Source: Haloglomus halophilum
GTDB lineage: Archaea > Halobacteriota > Halobacteria > Halobacteriales > Haloarculaceae
Reading direction: 5' to 3'
Length of the DNA stretch: 64,000 nucleotides
Assembly: GCF_024298885.1 (NCBI RefSeq)
Contig: NZ_CP101166.1
Coordinates: 2,291,149-2,355,148 of the forward strand
Part shown: in pieces, positions 4,218 to 46,698 of the stretch
Position numbering within the stretch: the first letter of the stretch is position 1
Layout of the letters: every line of letters starts with the position of its first letter
Translations under genes and position numbers: made by a program
Notes under the pieces: model-generated
The model's database searches: none
What the model was told of the DNA's origin: nothing
What the model saw: the letters and a program-made list of their open reading frames with translations, nothing else

Positions 4218-6614
4218 GTGAACGCACCAGTCCGTGCCATGTCCGACGAACAGGAGGCAGGTCCCGACCCCGACGCTGGCGGGGGTGGGGGGACGACACC
4301 CGAGGACGGCGACGGCTCGGTCGCCGATACGACTGCCGAGCCCCGCACCGACCCCGGCGACCTGCCCACCTACGACGACGTAGCGACCGCGCGGGAGGTG
4401 CTCCGCGCGTCCCCGGCCGAGCGCGACGAGCGCGGCCTCACCGACGACGACGTGCGGGCAGCGTTCCGGACGGTCATCGACGAGGGTGACCGGGAGGAGA
4501 AGGACCTCTCGGGGGTCACGCTCCCGGCCCTGGACCTCGATTACGAGGTCGTCGACGGGACGAACAAGCACCCAGTCGACCTCCGGGGGGCGACCGTCGA
4601 GAAGCTCAGCGCCGAGCGGGGAACCATCCGGATTCCCCTCCACCTCGAGGACGCCACCGTCGGCGATATCCAGCTGGAGGGCGCGCACGTCACGCAGGAC
4701 CTCATCCTCGACGACGCGACCGTCACCGGCGACGTGGACACGTTCGAGGCCGTGTTCGACGGCGACCTGGAGTGTCGCGGGACCACGTTCGAGGGCGCGG
4801 TCGAACTGGACGAGGGCTCGTTCCACGACGACGTGAGCTTCGACGAGGCGACGTTCGAATCAGGGTTCGCCGCCCGGAACGCGGAGTTCTTCGGCGAGTC
4901 CCATCTGCTGGACGACAGCACCAGCTTCGACGAGGCGACGTTCGCCGGCGAGGCGGACCTCCGGCACACGGACTTCGGCTACGCCCGGTTCGAGGGCGTG
5001 GCCTTCGAGAGCGACGCGACGTTCGAGGAGGCCGACTTCCGGGGCGATGTCGAGTTCGATGGCGCGACGTTCGGTGACGAGGCGGACTTCGACGAGATAC
5101 GCTTCGGCGGGGACGCCTCCTTCGCCGGCGTGACGTTCGGCGGCCTGGCGCACTTCCGTGGCTCCGTCTTCGAGGGCGGGGCCCGAGTGCTGGAGGCCGA
5201 TGCCGCCTTCCAGGACGTCTCCTTCGAGGGCGAGGCGGACTTCACCCGCGCCGGCTTCCGGGTGGCGGACTTCACGGGCACGTCGTTCGCCGGGCCGGCG
5301 ACGTTCACGGAGCTCGCGGCGAGCGACGACCTGACCCTCGCCGACTGCGAGTTCGACGCTGAACTCCACGCCGAGGAGGCGGTTCTCGACGGAGACGTGG
5401 ATGCCACGGGCGCGGCGTTCGCTGCGCCGGTCGTCTTCGAGGAGGCGGAGTTCGGCGACGACGCCTCCTTCGCCGACTGCCGGTTCGATGCGCTGGCGGA
5501 TTTCGACGAGGTGCTGTTCGACGGCGACACCACCTTCGAGGCCGCGACGTTCGAGGACGAGGCCGACTTCCGTGGGACCGAGTTCCTGGGTGACGCCAAC
5601 CACCTCGCCGACGGCATCTCGTTCGCGGACTGTCGGTTCGAGGCGCACACGGACTTCGACGACGCGGCGTTCACCTCCGCGGACTTCGGCGGCGTCACCT
5701 TCGGCGCGCCCGCGGATTTCACGGGCGCGACCTTCGACGACCGGCTCGTCTGCCTGGCCAGCGCGACCACCGCCGCGACGTATCTCGACTTCACCGACGC
5801 GAAGATCAAGCGCGGCCGCATCGTCCAGCCCGAATCCAGCTGGATCCACTACGACATGACCCGTGCCAGCCTGGGTGACGTGGCGCTGGATGCCGAGCGC
5901 GAGTCGGACCGCCGGGAGCTGCTGGACTACTTCCGATTCTGCAACACGGAGTTCGACGAGTTCGACGGCCTGGCCTTCGACTTCTCGGACCACACCGACT
6001 ACCTCGACCGCAACGAGTGGGTGCTCCACGACTTCACCGAGAACGACGCCGCCGACCACGAGTTCGCCGTCGAGATGACGCCGGGGGTGACCGAGACGAC
6101 CTACCTGAAGGCGAAGAACGCCGCCTCCGCGGCGGGGGAGATGAAGGCCGCCGGCGAGTTCCGCGTGAAGCGGCAGGCGTTCTCGCGCCGGAAGCACATC
6201 GACATCGCCAAGGACCCGAGCGTGAGCCTCGGCGCCAGGCTCCAGAACGCCGCGAGAGCCGCCGAGAACGGATTCCTCGGGCTCACCTGCGGCCACGGGA
6301 TGCGCCTGATGCGCATCGCGCTGGTCTTCCTGCTCGCGCCGCTCCTGTTCGTCCCCTTCTACACGTTCGGCGGCCCGGCGTTCGCCACCACCACCGGCCA
6401 GCTGGACTCGCTCTCCGAACTGGCGACCCCTGCCGGGCAGGAGGTGCTGCTCGGCAACATTCACCTCAGCTACATCTCCTACACCACCATCGGCTACGGG
6501 AACGAGGCGCCGACCGCTATCGCCGGGCGGCTGATGGCCAGCAGCGAGGCCTTCCTCAGCACCGTGCTCGCGGCGCTGGTCGTCTATGCGCTGGTCAAGC
6601 GCTCGGAGCTGTAG
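4218..6614 (+). CDS. pentapeptide-repeat beta-helix protein fused to a C-terminal 2-TM potassium-channel pore domain (TTIGYGN selectivity filter)
   Basis: About 350 residues of xxFxx pentapeptide repeats (ATFES/GFAAR/ADFRG...). C-terminus: TM1 LMRIALVFLLAPLLFVPFY, pore helix plus filter HLSYISYTTIGYGNEAPTAIAGRL, TM2 FLSTVLAALVVYALV. Aligns with the KcsA-type TVGYGD...GR pattern. Confidence 0.75.
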   Translation: MNAPVRAMSDEQEAGPDPDAGGGGGTTPEDGDGSVADTTAEPRTDPGDLPTYDDVATAREVLRASPAERDERGLTDDDVRAAFRTVIDEGDREEKDLSGVTLPALDLDYEVVDGTNKHPVDLRGATVEKLSAERGTIRIPLHLEDATVGDIQLEGAHVTQDLILDDATVTGDVDTFEAVFDGDLECRGTTFEGAVELDEGSFHDDVSFDEATFESGFAARNAEFFGESHLLDDSTSFDEATFAGEADLRHTDFGYARFEGVAFESDATFEEADFRGDVEFDGATFGDEADFDEIRFGGDASFAGVTFGGLAHFRGSVFEGGARVLEADAAFQDVSFEGEADFTRAGFRVADFTGTSFAGPATFTELAASDDLTLADCEFDAELHAEEAVLDGDVDATGAAFAAPVVFEEAEFGDDASFADCRFDALADFDEVLFDGDTTFEAATFEDEADFRGTEFLGDANHLADGISFADCRFEAHTDFDDAAFTSADFGGVTFGAPADFTGATFDDRLVCLASATTAATYLDFTDAKIKRGRIVQPESSWIHYDMTRASLGDVALDAERESDRRELLDYFRFCNTEFDEFDGLAFDFSDHTDYLDRNEWVLHDFTENDAADHEFAVEMTPGVTETTYLKAKNAASAAGEMKAAGEFRVKRQAFSRRKHIDIAKDPSVSLGARLQNAARAAENGFLGLTCGHGMRLMRIALVFLLAPLLFVPFYTFGGPAFATTTGQLDSLSELATPAGQEVLLGNIHLSYISYTTIGYGNEAPTAIAGRLMASSEAFLSTVLAALVVYALVKRSEL

Positions 6615-31302: not shown

Positions 31303-31378
31303 TACTGGGGCGTAGACGGGGGAGCGACAAGAGCGCGTCGGGGCCAACCTTCAAGCCCCGTTGCGCCGAAGGCGCCGT

Positions 31379-32623
31379 ATGGCCCTCCCGCTCTATCCAG
31401 CACAGGCCGGCGTCGTCGGCGGTATCGTCACGCTGGTCATCCTGGCCATCGCCATCGTCGCCGTCTACAAGTCCGTCGTCATCGTGCAGGCGTACGAGCG
31501 GAAGGTGTGGACGCTGTTCGGGCAGTACCGCGGTATCAAGGAGCCCGGCATCTCGTTCATCCCGCCGTTCGTCTCGGCCACCTACGCGTTCGACATGCGA
31601 ACCCAGACGCTCGACGTGCCCCGGCAGGAGGCCATCACGCGCGACAACTCGCCCGTGACGGCCGACGCCGTCGTCTACATCAAGGTGATGGACGCCAAGA
31701 AGGCGTTCCTCGAGGTCGACAACTACAAACGCGCCGTTTCGAACCTCGCCCAGACCACGCTCCGGGCGGTGCTGGGCGACATGGAGCTGGACGACACGCT
31801 GAACAAGCGCGGCGAGATCAACGCCCGCATCCGCAAGGAACTCGACGAACCCACCGACGAGTGGGGGGTCCGCGTCGAGTCCGTCGAGGTCCGCGAGGTC
31901 AACCCCTCGCAGGACGTCCAGCAGGCGATGGAGCAGCAGACCTCCGCCGAGCGCCGCCGCCGTGCCATGATTCTCGAAGCGCAGGGTGAGCGCCGCTCCG
32001 CCGTCGAGAAGGCCGAGGGTGACAAGCAGTCCGACATCATCCGCGCACAGGGGGAGAAGCAGTCACAGATCCTCGAAGCGCAGGGTGACGCCATCTCGAC
32101 CGTCCTCCGCGCCAAATCCGCCGAGTCGATGGGCGAGCGTGCGGTCATCGAGAAGGGGATGGAGACGCTCGAATCCATCGGGCAGAACGAGTCCACGACG
32201 TTCGTGCTCCCGCAGGAACTCACCTCACTCGTCGGGCGCTACGGCAAGCACCTCACCGGCAGCGACGTGCAGGGTGACGGCCAGGAGCTGGAGGCGCTCG
32301 ACTTCGACGACGAGACCCGTGAACTGCTCGGCCTCGACGATATCGAGGAGATACTCGGGCAGATCGAGCAGGAGACGGAGATGGACGTCGAGCAGATGGA
32401 GGCCGAGGCCCAGGCGATCAAGGAGGGACAGGACGCGGCCGACATCCGCGACCCCGACGAGGTCATCGAGGAGATGGACCAGGAGATGGGCGCGGGCGCC
32501 GACATCGATGTCGGCGCGGGCGACAACACCGGCGCGGCGACCCCGGAGCGCGGCAGTGATTCGGATGCCGACGGTGACGCCGGCGCGGACGGCGATGGCG
32601 AGCGCGAACCCGAGACGGAGTGA
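31379..32623 (+). CDS. SPFH/band-7 (stomatin/HflK-like) membrane protein with long acidic coiled-coil tail
   Basis: N-terminal TM then YERKVWTLFGQYRGIKEPGISFIPPF...TRDNSPVTADAVVYIKV (SPFH core). Confidence 0.85.
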   Translation: MALPLYPAQAGVVGGIVTLVILAIAIVAVYKSVVIVQAYERKVWTLFGQYRGIKEPGISFIPPFVSATYAFDMRTQTLDVPRQEAITRDNSPVTADAVVYIKVMDAKKAFLEVDNYKRAVSNLAQTTLRAVLGDMELDDTLNKRGEINARIRKELDEPTDEWGVRVESVEVREVNPSQDVQQAMEQQTSAERRRRAMILEAQGERRSAVEKAEGDKQSDIIRAQGEKQSQILEAQGDAISTVLRAKSAESMGERAVIEKGMETLESIGQNESTTFVLPQELTSLVGRYGKHLTGSDVQGDGQELEALDFDDETRELLGLDDIEEILGQIEQETEMDVEQMEAEAQAIKEGQDAADIRDPDEVIEEMDQEMGAGADIDVGAGDNTGAATPERGSDSDADGDAGADGDGEREPETE

Positions 32624-32634
32624 TTCCGCCGCGG

Positions 32635-34464
32635 CTACCGCTGGACCGACCGGGTCAGCGCGAAGACGAACAGGGCGATGAGGAAGCCACCGAGGAACCC
32701 TTCTGACGAGGCGAGCAGTCTGACGGGAAGCGTCGCGCCACGCGGGACGCCGCCGAAGATGAGGCTCACGAACGACTGGAGGCTGAACGTCAGGTTCTCG
32801 AGCGCGACGGTCGCGAGCGACGCGTCCGGTCGCGTCACGGCTCCCAGTCCGGCGAACACCGCCCCGTACCCGGCCACGAGCAGCAGGGAGACCGCGACCG
32901 TTCTGAGCGGCCGCTCGCCGTAGCCACAGCTCAGTCCGAACAGCGCGTTGGTGGCCCAGCCGCCGGCCGCCCGCAGCCGGTCGGTGGCTGTCTCGCCCGT
33001 CCCGACAGCATCCCGTTTGAGCCGGCGGCGGTAGCGCATCTCCCGGACGAAGAACTGCGAGGCCGCGGTCCGGTCGCCGGTGGCATCGGCCCCACGACGG
33101 GCCTTGAGGTACGTCGACTCCAGAACCTTCGGCGCGAGGTCGGCATCGACGGCCCGGCCGCGCCCGGGGTCGTGAACCCGGTGGAGGTTCCACGTCTCGC
33201 CGAGTGCGCCACGGTGGTCCTCGAACGCGAACCCGTCGAACGAGGTCCGGGCCACCCGGAGGTGGTCGAACGGCACCACCCCCGAGTCGCCACCGACGAG
33301 GGTGACATCCGCGATGGCTCCGTCCGTGCAGTCGAAGACGACCCGTTCGTCGTCGGGCAGGTGGAGTTTGCCGTCGGCGACGGTGGCGTCCGTACAGTCG
33401 ACGACGACGCGCTCGTCGGCCGGACGGTCCGGTCCAGGGACGAGCCCCGAGCAGTCGAGGCCACCGTCGATGCTGGCGCCCCGGAGTCCGAGGTCACCGA
33501 CGAGCGTCGCCCCGGCGAACTCCACGCCCGACCGGAACGTGGCGTTCCTGAACTGGAGGTCCGCTCGCGGCCCGGACCGGTGCCGTCGTCCGCCGTGGAT
33601 TCCGACGAACCAGGTCCGGTCGGCGAACGTGGCGTCGAGGAAGTCCGTGCCACCCTCGAAGCGACAGTCGGTGAAGTGTGCCTCCCCGTCGAAGTGGGCG
33701 CCACCGAATCCCGCGTCCCCCTCGAAGCGGGTGTGGCGGAACCACGCGTCGCCGCCGAACTCGACGCGGCGGAACCCGGCGGCCCCGCGGCAGCGAGCCC
33801 CCGCGAATCGGACCGTGCCATCGAAGGCCGCCCCCTTCGCACGGACCGAACCGAACGAACAGGCGTCGAGCCGGAGCTCCGTCCCGAACCGGGCGTCCGA
33901 GAGGTCGGCCCGTTCCGAGACGGTACAGAACCGCAGGTCGACGGGGCGGTTGTACGCCGGGCGATGGACGTAGCCGGCGAGGTCGAGCGTCTCGAACGAG
34001 GCCCCGACGACGACGTGACGCGCCGGGTCGTCGGCCGACAGCGCCTCGTGGAGCGCCTCCCGGACTGCCGCGGGCGATGCGTCGCCGTGGAAGACACAGC
34101 GGTCGCTCCCGTCGGTCGCGGGATGTGGACACTCGGTCGGCAGGTCCTCGTCCGTCCGGTCGTTGCTCCCGCGGCGGACGAGCAGGTCGACGACGTCGTC
34201 CACCGTCCGTCCGAGGACCTCCGCGTCCGCGTCCGCGACGACGCTGGCGGCGCCCTGCGCGAGCAGGTCATCGTCGACCGGACGGTCTGCCGGGAGCGCC
34301 TCCCGGAGCCGTCGTCGCCCCACCTCGACCCCGTTCCCCTCGCGGTCCGCCCCGTTGAACCCCTCCGGAGCCGTGCAGAACGCCCGGACCGTCACCAGCT
34401 CGTCCGCGAGCGCGACCAGGTGGTCGCGCCAGTCCTCGTCGGCGAAGTACGTGCAGCTGTCCAT
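32635..34464 (-). CDS. paralog of the 4218-6614 protein: pentapeptide-repeat domain plus C-terminal 2-TM pore-loop domain with a degenerate filter
   Basis: Shares STYLKA(K/R), FGL(S/T)CG(Y/H)G and ASSE(G/A)FL with the paralog, but has SLQSFVSLIFGGVP where the paralog has SYISYTTIGYGNEAP. Confidence 0.7.
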   Translation of the reverse strand: MDSCTYFADEDWRDHLVALADELVTVRAFCTAPEGFNGADREGNGVEVGRRRLREALPADRPVDDDLLAQGAASVVADADAEVLGRTVDDVVDLLVRRGSNDRTDEDLPTECPHPATDGSDRCVFHGDASPAAVREALHEALSADDPARHVVVGASFETLDLAGYVHRPAYNRPVDLRFCTVSERADLSDARFGTELRLDACSFGSVRAKGAAFDGTVRFAGARCRGAAGFRRVEFGGDAWFRHTRFEGDAGFGGAHFDGEAHFTDCRFEGGTDFLDATFADRTWFVGIHGGRRHRSGPRADLQFRNATFRSGVEFAGATLVGDLGLRGASIDGGLDCSGLVPGPDRPADERVVVDCTDATVADGKLHLPDDERVVFDCTDGAIADVTLVGGDSGVVPFDHLRVARTSFDGFAFEDHRGALGETWNLHRVHDPGRGRAVDADLAPKVLESTYLKARRGADATGDRTAASQFFVREMRYRRRLKRDAVGTGETATDRLRAAGGWATNALFGLSCGYGERPLRTVAVSLLLVAGYGAVFAGLGAVTRPDASLATVALENLTFSLQSFVSLIFGGVPRGATLPVRLLASSEGFLGGFLIALFVFALTRSVQR

Positions 34465-34584
34465 CCGCTCGACGGTGCCGGGGGCGGGGACAACACTGTT
34501 TCGACGAGCGACAGCCCGGGGGGACCTGTATACCCATGCATCACCGCCGACGGGCTTTTATCCGGTGTGTGCCTTGACCCGGCA

Positions 34585-35217
34585 ATGAGCGAGGAGTCGG
34601 TCGACGAGGAGAAACGGGCCACACTCCGCCGGTTCGCCGCGGTCGGCGCCGGCGGCCCACTGGCTCGACTCGCCGGCTCCGACGCGGACGCGAGCGCCCC
34701 CGACGACCGCGAGACCACCAGCGAGGTCCCCGCGGCCATCCGTGGCTACCTCGCCACGACGCCGGGCGCACACTTCTCGAAGCTCCGGGACGACCTCCGC
34801 CTGGGCACCGGCGAGGCCCAGTACCACCTCCGCCGGCTGGCAGAGCGCGACGCCGTGGACTCCTGGAAGGACGGCGACTACCGTCGCTACGCTCCGGCCG
34901 GCCGGTTCTCGGACTTCGAACGCCGGACGCTGGGCTTCCTCCGACGGGACACCGCTCGCGGCCTGCTCGTGGAACTGCTCCGCGACCCGGACGCGACGGG
35001 GGCAGAGCTCGCCGACCGCCTCGGCGTCTCGGCACCCACCGTCAGCAAGTACGCCGCCGAACTCGCGGAGGCGGGCCTGCTCGACCGCTCGGACGGCTAC
35101 GACCTCACGCGTCCGGAGACGACGCTGTTGCTTCTGGTGCGGTACGCCGACTCCTTCGGCCCCGACGCCGTCGCGCTCGCCGCTGACGCCGACGAGCTTG
35201 TGGAGTATTCAGGATAA
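34585..35217 (+). CDS. tandem winged-helix (ArsR/TrmB-like) transcriptional regulator, divergent from the 32635-34464 gene
   Basis: Two wHTH units (GAHFSKLRDDLRLGTGEAQYHLRRL; ELADRLGVSAPTVSKYAAELAEAGLL). Confidence 0.55.
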   Translation: MSEESVDEEKRATLRRFAAVGAGGPLARLAGSDADASAPDDRETTSEVPAAIRGYLATTPGAHFSKLRDDLRLGTGEAQYHLRRLAERDAVDSWKDGDYRRYAPAGRFSDFERRTLGFLRRDTARGLLVELLRDPDATGAELADRLGVSAPTVSKYAAELAEAGLLDRSDGYDLTRPETTLLLLVRYADSFGPDAVALAADADELVEYSG

Positions 35218-46492: not shown

Positions 46493-46698
46493 TCCACCAC
46501 TTGCGGCTCCACCTCTCTCACGCCCACGTTCCGAAGCCCTTAGAAGCCCGAACCAAGAAGATAGCTCCAACTCGTCGGTCGCGGGCACCGACGGGCACCT
46601 GCTACGGCAGGATGGAATGTGGCCAGCGGGGGCGAAGCCCCCGGAGAGGCGGCGCAGCCGCCGATGGGCTGAACCACGCAACGCCCGCGGTGACACAC

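Follow-up and report, generated by a model that had tools for sequence, protein, structure and literature searches.

A haloarchaeal pentapeptide-repeat protein with a channel-type membrane module and a conserved alternative pore loop

Introduction

Canonical potassium channels with two transmembrane helices, such as KcsA and KirBac (PF07885), carry the filter signature T-x-G-[YF]-G. Work on KcsA showed that the first filter glycine needs a left-handed backbone conformation, and the non-selective channels NaK, HCN, and CNG/SthK keep at least one filter glycine at the equivalent position (TVGDG, CIGYG). Another described system is the bacterial Hailong anti-phage system. Its effector, HalA (PDB 9nyi), assembles as a homotetrameric channel that bears a crown on its cytoplasmic side; oligodeoxyadenylate made by HalB holds the channel closed, and release of this ligand leads to Na+ influx (Tan et al., Nature 2025, via review PMC13434031). 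This article concerns a gene of the archaeon Haloglomus halophilum whose product invites comparison with both. The window, that is, the whole stretch of DNA analysed, spans 64,000 nucleotides of contig NZ_CP101166.1; the gene occupies positions 32635 to 34464 on its minus strand, and the 609-residue product is here called W609.

A gene at 4218 to 6614 encodes a paralog, and a protein with tandem winged helix-turn-helix (wHTH) domains is encoded divergently beside the W609 gene. The best explanation overall, with a probability of roughly 0.6, is that W609 is a functional member of a pentapeptide-repeat channel family with an altered pore loop, and that the wHTH protein does not serve as its dedicated regulator. 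This departs from the original prediction, in which W609 was a duplicate whose selectivity filter had degenerated, evolving under diversifying selection and paired with its regulator.

Domain architecture

The identity and architecture of W609 can be assigned with considerable confidence. The gene divides as follows.

32635 to 34464, minus strand: whole gene, an intact ATG-started open reading frame (ORF) of 609 amino acids, with a pentapeptide-repeat domain and a P-loop pore module of two transmembrane helices
34444 to 34455, minus strand: first Cys of the N-terminal Cys/His motif (C4-T-Y-F); C4 is almost invariant in alignment A3
34141 to 34443, minus strand: insertion of about 100 residues, peculiar to the Haloglomus clade, that separates C4 from C112 (residues 8-108)
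34087 to 34131, minus strand: C112-P-H-x8-C123-x-F-H126 knuckle, a putative zinc-binding motif; C112, C123, F125, and H126 are invariant in A3
33280 to 33924, minus strand: pentapeptide-repeat right-handed beta-helix, residues about 181-395 (Pfam PF13576; AlphaFold2)
32917 to 33132, minus strand: three predicted linker helices, presumably cytoplasmic, residues 445-516 (helices 445-461, 465-489, and 493-516; AlphaFold2)
32845 to 32910, minus strand: outer transmembrane helix M1, residues 519-540 (hydropathy peak 2.02 at residue 532; AlphaFold2 helix)
32731 to 32817, minus strand: pore helix (residues 550-566) and P-loop (residues 567-578), from alignments, column statistics, and fold matches to HalA, HCN, NaK, and KcsA
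32641 to 32730, minus strand: inner transmembrane helix M2, residues 579-608, including ASSEGFL (hydropathy peak 1.91 at residue 592; AlphaFold2 helix)

The Pfam model Pentapeptide_3 (PF13576) matches W609 in three stretches and exceeds its gathering threshold (E 2e-24; 85.9 bits against a cutoff of 27). The AlphaFold2 model shows the beta-helix as regular short strands with a predicted local distance difference test score (pLDDT) of about 90. Mean pLDDT is 79 for full-length W609 and 86 for the C-terminal module; the N-terminal 110 residues or so are poorly predicted. These include the insertion, which was seen only in W609 and in P0001-P0004 among the 18 sequences of alignment A1. It is helical by prediction at low confidence, with pLDDT mostly below 55 and segments 15-46, 67-79, and 81-106 below 50.

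The Cys/His motif that the insertion splits in Haloglomus lies outside any Pfam model. Its full form, C-x-[YF]...W-x-C-P-H-x(6-9)-C-x-F-H, is conserved and likely a zinc knuckle; the core C...C-P-H-x(6-9)-C-x-F-H is invariant in close and distant relatives alike (A3). The linker helices bear STYLKA, FFVREMRYRRR, and CGYGERP; Y452 and G516 are invariant in A1. By position, the shared motifs of W609 are STYLKA (residues 450-455), FGLSCGYG (509-516), SLQSFVSLIFGGVP (561-574), and ASSEGFL (585-591). The N-terminus, beta-helix, and linker are presumably cytoplasmic, and the residues RPLR before M1 and TRSVQR after M2 fit the positive-inside rule.

An ancient paralog

The second gene encodes a member of the subfamily that retains a canonical filter.

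4218 to 6614, plus strand: paralog, 798 amino acids, canonical-filter subfamily (TTIGYGN), from ORF, Pfam, and BLASTP evidence

In Pfam this protein matches Pentapeptide_3 (7.7e-48) and, at residues 750-794, the channel model Ion_trans_2 (6.3e-6). The two window proteins are alike in domain order and in the linker motifs (S/T)TYLKA, CG(Y/H)G, and ASSE(G/A)FL; near-equivalents in the paralog read TTYLKA, LGLTCGHG, ASSEAFL, and SYISYTTIGYGNEAP. BLASTP aligns them at 31% identity over 440 residues, reaching the C-terminus (E 6e-34), and the C-terminal modules on their own at 35.6% identity over 177 amino acids (E 1e-17). Both have two hydrophobic helices by Kyte-Doolittle hydropathy, centred in W609 at about residues 532 and 592. 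The common architecture and linker motifs of the original prediction are thereby confirmed, as is the difference in the filter, where the alignment sets VSLIFGG in W609 against TTIGYGN in the paralog. The outcome that was to refute the prediction, a second copy whose C-terminal region does not align with the first, did not occur.

The paralog differs from W609 in keeping TTIGYGN and an Ion_trans_2 score, in lacking the N-terminal Cys/His knuckle, and in having a longer repeat domain and a far more acidic composition. W609 is unusually basic for a haloarchaeal protein (K+R 11.5%, D+E 14.9%, against 7.0% and 20.9% in the paralog). The likely start of the paralog is the ATG at 4239 (MSDEQE), not the GTG at 4218; a 77%-identical ortholog, P0012, begins there.

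The window holds no copies beyond these two, which lie 26 kb apart. To judge from sequence comparison they are true paralogs that separated anciently and belong to different subfamilies, because W609 is typical of the non-canonical class described below, whereas the paralog belongs to a canonical subgroup with its own 77% ortholog.

Kinship with potassium channel pores and structural likeness to HalA

How is W609 connected to known channels? A phmmer search of PDB sequences returned no match for W609, nor for the bacterial homolog P0265; only profiles reached the potassium channels. A profile of the family's C-terminal module matches TOK, K2P, KirBac, and KcsA at 1e-8 to 1e-5, and a profile built from only the filter-less bacterial members matches KcsA over M1-P-M2 at 0.003. 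The membrane module of W609 is considered a homolog of the potassium channel pore because each step is linked: W609 to its paralog (1e-17), the paralog to Ion_trans_2 (6.3e-6), and the profiles to potassium channels. In its predicted structure, W609 shows the topology and fold of a P-loop channel (M1, re-entrant helix, loop, M2), and its structural neighbours are almost exclusively such channels.

The closest of these neighbours is HalA. When the full-length model was searched with Foldseek, HalA was the sole match at E<=1e-3 (2.4e-4, 362 aligned columns), and the alignment takes in essentially the whole 333-residue HalA chain; the region of the linker helices is superposable as well. HalA also ranks first for the C-terminal model searched alone. 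By these models W609 has the HalA-type fold, in which a cytoplasmic crown is attached to the membrane domain of a channel. Several features nevertheless set it apart. W609, an archaeal protein, is about twice the length of HalA; its beta-helix is much longer, and it has a Cys/His knuckle at the N-terminus. Its gene lies in a housekeeping context with no HalB nucleotidyltransferase or other conserved partner.

W609 departs from KcsA, KirBac, and other canonical channels with two transmembrane helices at the filter, where it reads S567-L-I-F-G571 for T-x-G-[YF]-G. Hydrophobic residues stand in for the first glycine and the tyrosine, and a glycine for the aspartate that follows; the K+-selective signature is missing. 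Moreover, the N-terminal region is a large pentapeptide domain, not an RCK, CNBD, or voltage-sensor domain.

A conserved alternative filter loop

To our knowledge, the S-L-I-F-G loop has no characterised counterpart. Loops of its class are common within the family. Searching 1.84 billion cluster representatives with a profile yielded 366 clusters at E<=1e-30, and loops and classes were analysed in the best 150 of these 366 representatives together with the two window proteins (152 sequences). Half of this set (76/152) has a non-canonical loop, [TSA]-h-[VIL]-h-G, set within S-x-[QE]-S-F-[VI]-[TSA]-[LF]-[VI]-[LF]-G; in W609 the corresponding residues are S561-L-Q-S-F-V-S-L-I-F-G-G572. The canonical T-x-G-[YFL]-G loop is retained in 61, and the remaining 15 have other loops (ITLEYV, TALLRGP, LSLTD).

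The non-canonical loop is strongly conserved: Ser561 in 75 of its 76 members, Phe565 in 73, and Gly571 in 73. The classes stay coherent when the filter columns are removed. The nearest neighbour then belongs to the same class for 75 of the 76 non-canonical and 56 of the 61 canonical sequences, so the split between them is ancient and not a matter of local decay. Cohesion is greater in the non-canonical class, whose mean internal identity is 45%, against 32-34% between classes. The original prediction was thus right that W609 lacks the K+ signature, but the loop is neither degenerate nor a change that followed a duplication.

Full-length representatives carry the Cys/His motif in 56 of 62 non-canonical and 26 of 43 canonical cases. 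Family members occur in Haloarcula, Halorubrum, Halobellus, Haloferax, Natrialba, and Natranaeroarchaeum, and in a few planctomycete and other bacterial metagenome-assembled genomes (MAGs). The Haloferax homologs include those of Haloferax elongans and H. larsenii (L041, L049).

Further observations concern the spread of the family. The loops ITLEYV, TALLRGP, and LSLTD are fixed in branches of their own (P0165, P0167, P0214, P0215; P0216, P0252, P0263; P0284, P0289), whose bacterial members share the linker motif GAADFYYGEMEMRR...WLVSGYGLRAWR. Plasmid p5 of Haloarcula salina (L011) carries a family member. At least two copies per genome are found in several Halorubrum species (L016/L023, L021/L039, L026/L037) and in Halolamina salina (L029/L035); such genomes often pair a canonical with a non-canonical loop, as the window does.

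Existing database names for members include "pentapeptide repeat-containing protein", "potassium channel family protein", and "Ion channel fus..." (an incomplete UniRef name). This kind of family is therefore already known at the level of annotation. As far as our searches show, the glycine-less P-loop branch and its structural kinship with HalA have not been described.

Orthologs and selection

Orthologs of W609 at 73-94% identity share its start and end. Ratios of nonsynonymous to synonymous substitution (dN/dS), calculated pairwise by the Nei-Gojobori method between the window gene and its orthologs, are 0.17 at 94% identity and 0.28 at 74%. They stay below 0.4 in every region, and are lowest in the membrane module (0.10-0.17). 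The W609 gene is under purifying selection. The proposed diversifying selection receives no support from these values, nor from the orthologs of the two paralogs: both have them, and the more distant ones stand at similar divergence (73-76% for W609, 77% for the paralog). The channel gene does evolve faster than its neighbours, and in locus L003 its product is 74% identical to that of the window, compared with 98% for the adjacent Band_7 protein and 89% for the wHTH protein.

One ortholog is interrupted. In the complete genome of Haloglomus salinum (CP101153.1; L006, 3052-4881, minus strand), a CAG-to-TAG change places a stop at codon 403, and the gene is called as two ORFs of 402 and 206 amino acids. 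A MAG copy that differs from it at 7 of 1824 nucleotides is intact.

Genomic neighbourhood

Three features adjoin or flank the W609 gene.

34585 to 35217, plus strand: HVO_0163-family tandem wHTH protein, 210 amino acids (PF24266 and MarR_2; two wHTH domains)
34465 to 34584, no strand: 120-bp intergenic region, holding an inverted repeat of 9 nt and the wHTH gene's TATA-like element
31361 to 32623, plus strand: Band_7/SPFH (stomatin-like) gene, convergent with the channel gene across an 11-nt gap (PF01145, 1.8e-43)

The wHTH protein contains HTH_HVO_0163_N (PF24266) at residues 48-116 (4e-24; 84.9 bits against a cutoff of 31), followed by a MarR_2/HTH_24 domain at residues 121-170 (MarR_2, 41.9 bits). 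A divergently encoded 210-residue protein with two winged-helix domains, 120 bp from the channel gene, is therefore present, as the Pfam matches and the intergenic sequence confirm. The question is whether the pairing means regulation. The protein has about 1985 homologs, at 64-70% identity across haloarchaeal families and at 95% in H. salinum.

Six wHTH loci outside the H. salinum-like clade were examined (L008-L010, L061-L063): those of Halorhabdus utahensis, Natranaeroarchaeum sulfidigenes, a Salinirubellus genome, and a Haloferacaceae genome, along with two contigs, namely the nearest outgroup (75% identity) and the one encoding the wHTH protein P0034, annotated as Haloglomus irregulare (86%). 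At every one of these loci a Band_7/SPFH gene on the same strand immediately precedes the wHTH gene, with a gap of 46-207 nt in the gene calls and Band_7 orthologs of 82-96% identity. A DUF7123 gene on the opposite strand is immediately beyond the wHTH gene in four of them, and 1-5 kb off in the other two. None has a channel homolog within 5 kb of the wHTH gene. Only in the window, in H. salinum, and in closely related metagenomic contigs is a channel gene found between Band_7 and wHTH, on the opposite strand.

The reciprocal comparison gives the same picture. None of 50 channel-homolog loci in the genome collection, 44 of which encode the membrane module, has this wHTH gene, Band_7, or DUF7123 within 6 kb. 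Clustering the neighbours of 45 family loci revealed no recurrent neighbour gene, only alternative-frame channel ORFs and synteny among close Halorubrum species.

The intergenic sequence tells a similar story. The TATA-like element TTTTATC (34557-34563) lies about 25 nt 5' of the wHTH ATG at 34586. It is invariant in four Haloglomus loci, and a G-TTTT(A/G)(T/C) core is kept at channel-less wHTH loci of other genera; the element is thus conserved with or without the channel. The imperfect inverted repeat (34466-34474 and 34502-34510), the only repeat in the spacer, is indistinguishable from chance. A scan for sigma-70 promoters and terminators found nothing, as expected for an archaeon.

Together, the six wHTH loci without a channel, the 50 channel loci without this wHTH gene, and the channel-independent TATA-like element fail to bear out a regulator-target arrangement. 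Among haloarchaea the wHTH gene belongs to the core set, with Band_7 as its ancestral, conserved partner; it probably has no functional link to the channel gene, and the divergent pairing is probably incidental. The simplest reading is that the channel gene was inserted into, or differentially lost from, an ancestral Band_7-wHTH-DUF7123 block. The gene has a G+C content of about 72%, against 69.6% for the window, and so bears no compositional mark of foreign origin. Any transfer was therefore probably not recent.

The Band_7-wHTH-DUF7123 block is conserved across haloarchaeal families, and the wHTH protein may belong functionally with the stomatin-like protein. Residues 6-25 of the wHTH protein, V-D-E-x-K-R-[AT]-T-L-R-R-F-A-[AT]-[LV]-G-A-x-x-P, resemble the twin-arginine (Tat) consensus followed by an Ala-rich stretch. 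This motif is invariant in seven named haloarchaeal genera and an unclassified Haloferacaceae genome, and is an odd start for a presumed cytoplasmic DNA-binding regulator. Literature searches on HVO_0163 gave nothing relevant.

Other window neighbours of W609, besides Band_7, wHTH, and DUF7123, are DUF5813, an M20 peptidase, and a PAN-type AAA ATPase. The window's sole Rfam match is an eL15-Euryarchaeota ribosomal-protein leader at 46598 to 46680 on the plus strand (38.7 bits, gathering threshold 33.7), and no tRNA genes were found in it.

Proposed mechanism and its alternatives

In N- to C-terminal order, the family's architecture comprises a Cys/His knuckle, a presumably cytoplasmic beta-helix, a three-helix linker, and the module of M1, pore helix, loop, and M2. 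These results suggest a model of how it works. Four W609 subunits would assemble into a pore across the membrane, and their beta-helices would hang beneath it as a cytoplasmic crown by analogy with HalA; the tetramer is proposed because characterised P-loop channels form four-fold pores. With Ile569 in place of the first filter glycine and Phe570 in place of the tyrosine, the canonical four-site K+ filter presumably cannot form, because a beta-branched isoleucine occupies a position where a backbone conformation open only to glycine is required. Loss or change of K+ selectivity is thus a reasonable expectation. The pore might pass cations without selectivity, like NaK or HalA, or be otherwise remodelled, and the crown and zinc knuckle would gate it through the linker helices, via whatever both bind. 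Conduction with altered selectivity, taken by itself, is put forward tentatively, at a little under even odds.

Several points weigh against this account. The AlphaFold2 models are of monomers and derive from shallow alignments (16-18 sequences). W609 has no Pfam Ion_trans_2 match at E<=0.1. The likeness to HalA appears to be one of structure only, with no significant sequence similarity: the NCBIfam HalA model NF051894 (cutoff 250 bits) does not match W609, while the paralog reaches 17.1 bits against it through its repeat region (E 0.0025) and the scores of three bacterial homologs are 10-12 bits. The premature stop in H. salinum means that at least one strain can do without the gene. Literature searches found no paper on the pentapeptide-channel family. 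Finally, the hydrophobic L-I-F loop could mean a closed or lost pore and not a non-selective one.

That last possibility is at the heart of the main rival, in which the non-canonical module has lost conduction. It would instead tetramerise and act as an anchor, tethering a beta-helix and zinc knuckle that bind a protein or nucleic-acid partner. The bulky side chains of Ile569 and Phe570 would fit such a role, as would the missing Ion_trans_2 match and the existence of branches without any filter-like loop (LSLTD, TALLRGP). However, conservation within the subfamily is strongest in the re-entrant helix and loop, and the membrane module has the lowest dN/dS, a degree of constraint that exceeds the needs of a simple anchor. 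Moreover, the nearest structures (HalA, HCN, NaK) all conduct, without strict K+ selectivity. An anchor seems rather unlikely, and yet is the strongest competitor.

A second alternative makes W609 a stand-alone effector of defence or stress. It would be an accessory, conditionally toxic cation channel, held closed by a cytoplasmic ligand on its crown and opening upon virus infection or stress, much as in Hailong but without HalB. HalA is, after all, the best structural match both for the whole protein and for the C-terminal module. The gene is polymorphic for presence or absence within Haloglomus and interrupts a conserved block, it evolves much faster than its neighbours (as in L003), and one strain carries a nonsense allele. 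Family copies on a Haloarcula plasmid and in multiple within Halorubrum point the same way. Against this, no nucleotidyltransferase or other conserved neighbour accompanies the 45 family loci or either window copy, PADLOC matches neither paralog, the neighbourhood is one of housekeeping genes, and the HalA profile score falls far under its cutoff. A defence role is unlikely on this evidence. Equally speculative is the broader proposal that the non-canonical branch could be an unrecognised class of P-loop channel, its pore loop hydrophobic and devoid of the filter glycine, and, with its canonical sisters, the archaeal counterpart of HalA: a conditionally lethal effector of defence or stress, gated through crown and zinc knuckle by a nucleic-acid or protein ligand, and acting alone without a HalB-type partner.

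The reading of the original prediction, a recent potassium channel duplicate with a decaying filter under diversifying selection and wHTH control, is very improbable, being already largely refuted by the comparative data. In its favour, the genes diverge from a 120-bp spacer that is conserved among close Haloglomus relatives, and the paralogs are 26 kb apart. But those paralogs are 31-36% identical, each with its own orthologs and subfamily, and dN/dS is low throughout. The wHTH gene, partnered by Band_7, does not adjoin channel homologs at the 50 loci elsewhere, and the channel is missing from the same site at the H. irregulare-annotated wHTH locus.

Finally, that W609 is a pseudogene or a decaying gene, as the H. 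salinum nonsense codon might imply, is hardly credible, given that the window copy and those of four other lineages are intact (609-617 codons), dN/dS is 0.17-0.28, and the C-terminal motif set is fully conserved.

Significance

The 366 clusters, mostly haloarchaeal, join a pentapeptide-repeat beta-helix to a pore of the potassium channel type, and about half of the best-scoring ones have swapped T-x-G-Y-G for an equally conserved motif. They provide a natural experiment on the fate of a P-loop pore once its glycines are lost, with a canonical sister in the same genome as a built-in control. For annotation there is a caution: divergent gene pairs need comparative evidence before they are read as regulator and target. 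The structural resemblance to HalA suggests a much wider family, as yet uncharacterised, of which the Hailong effector is a single offshoot. It also suggests that gating by a beta-helix crown may be a general principle.

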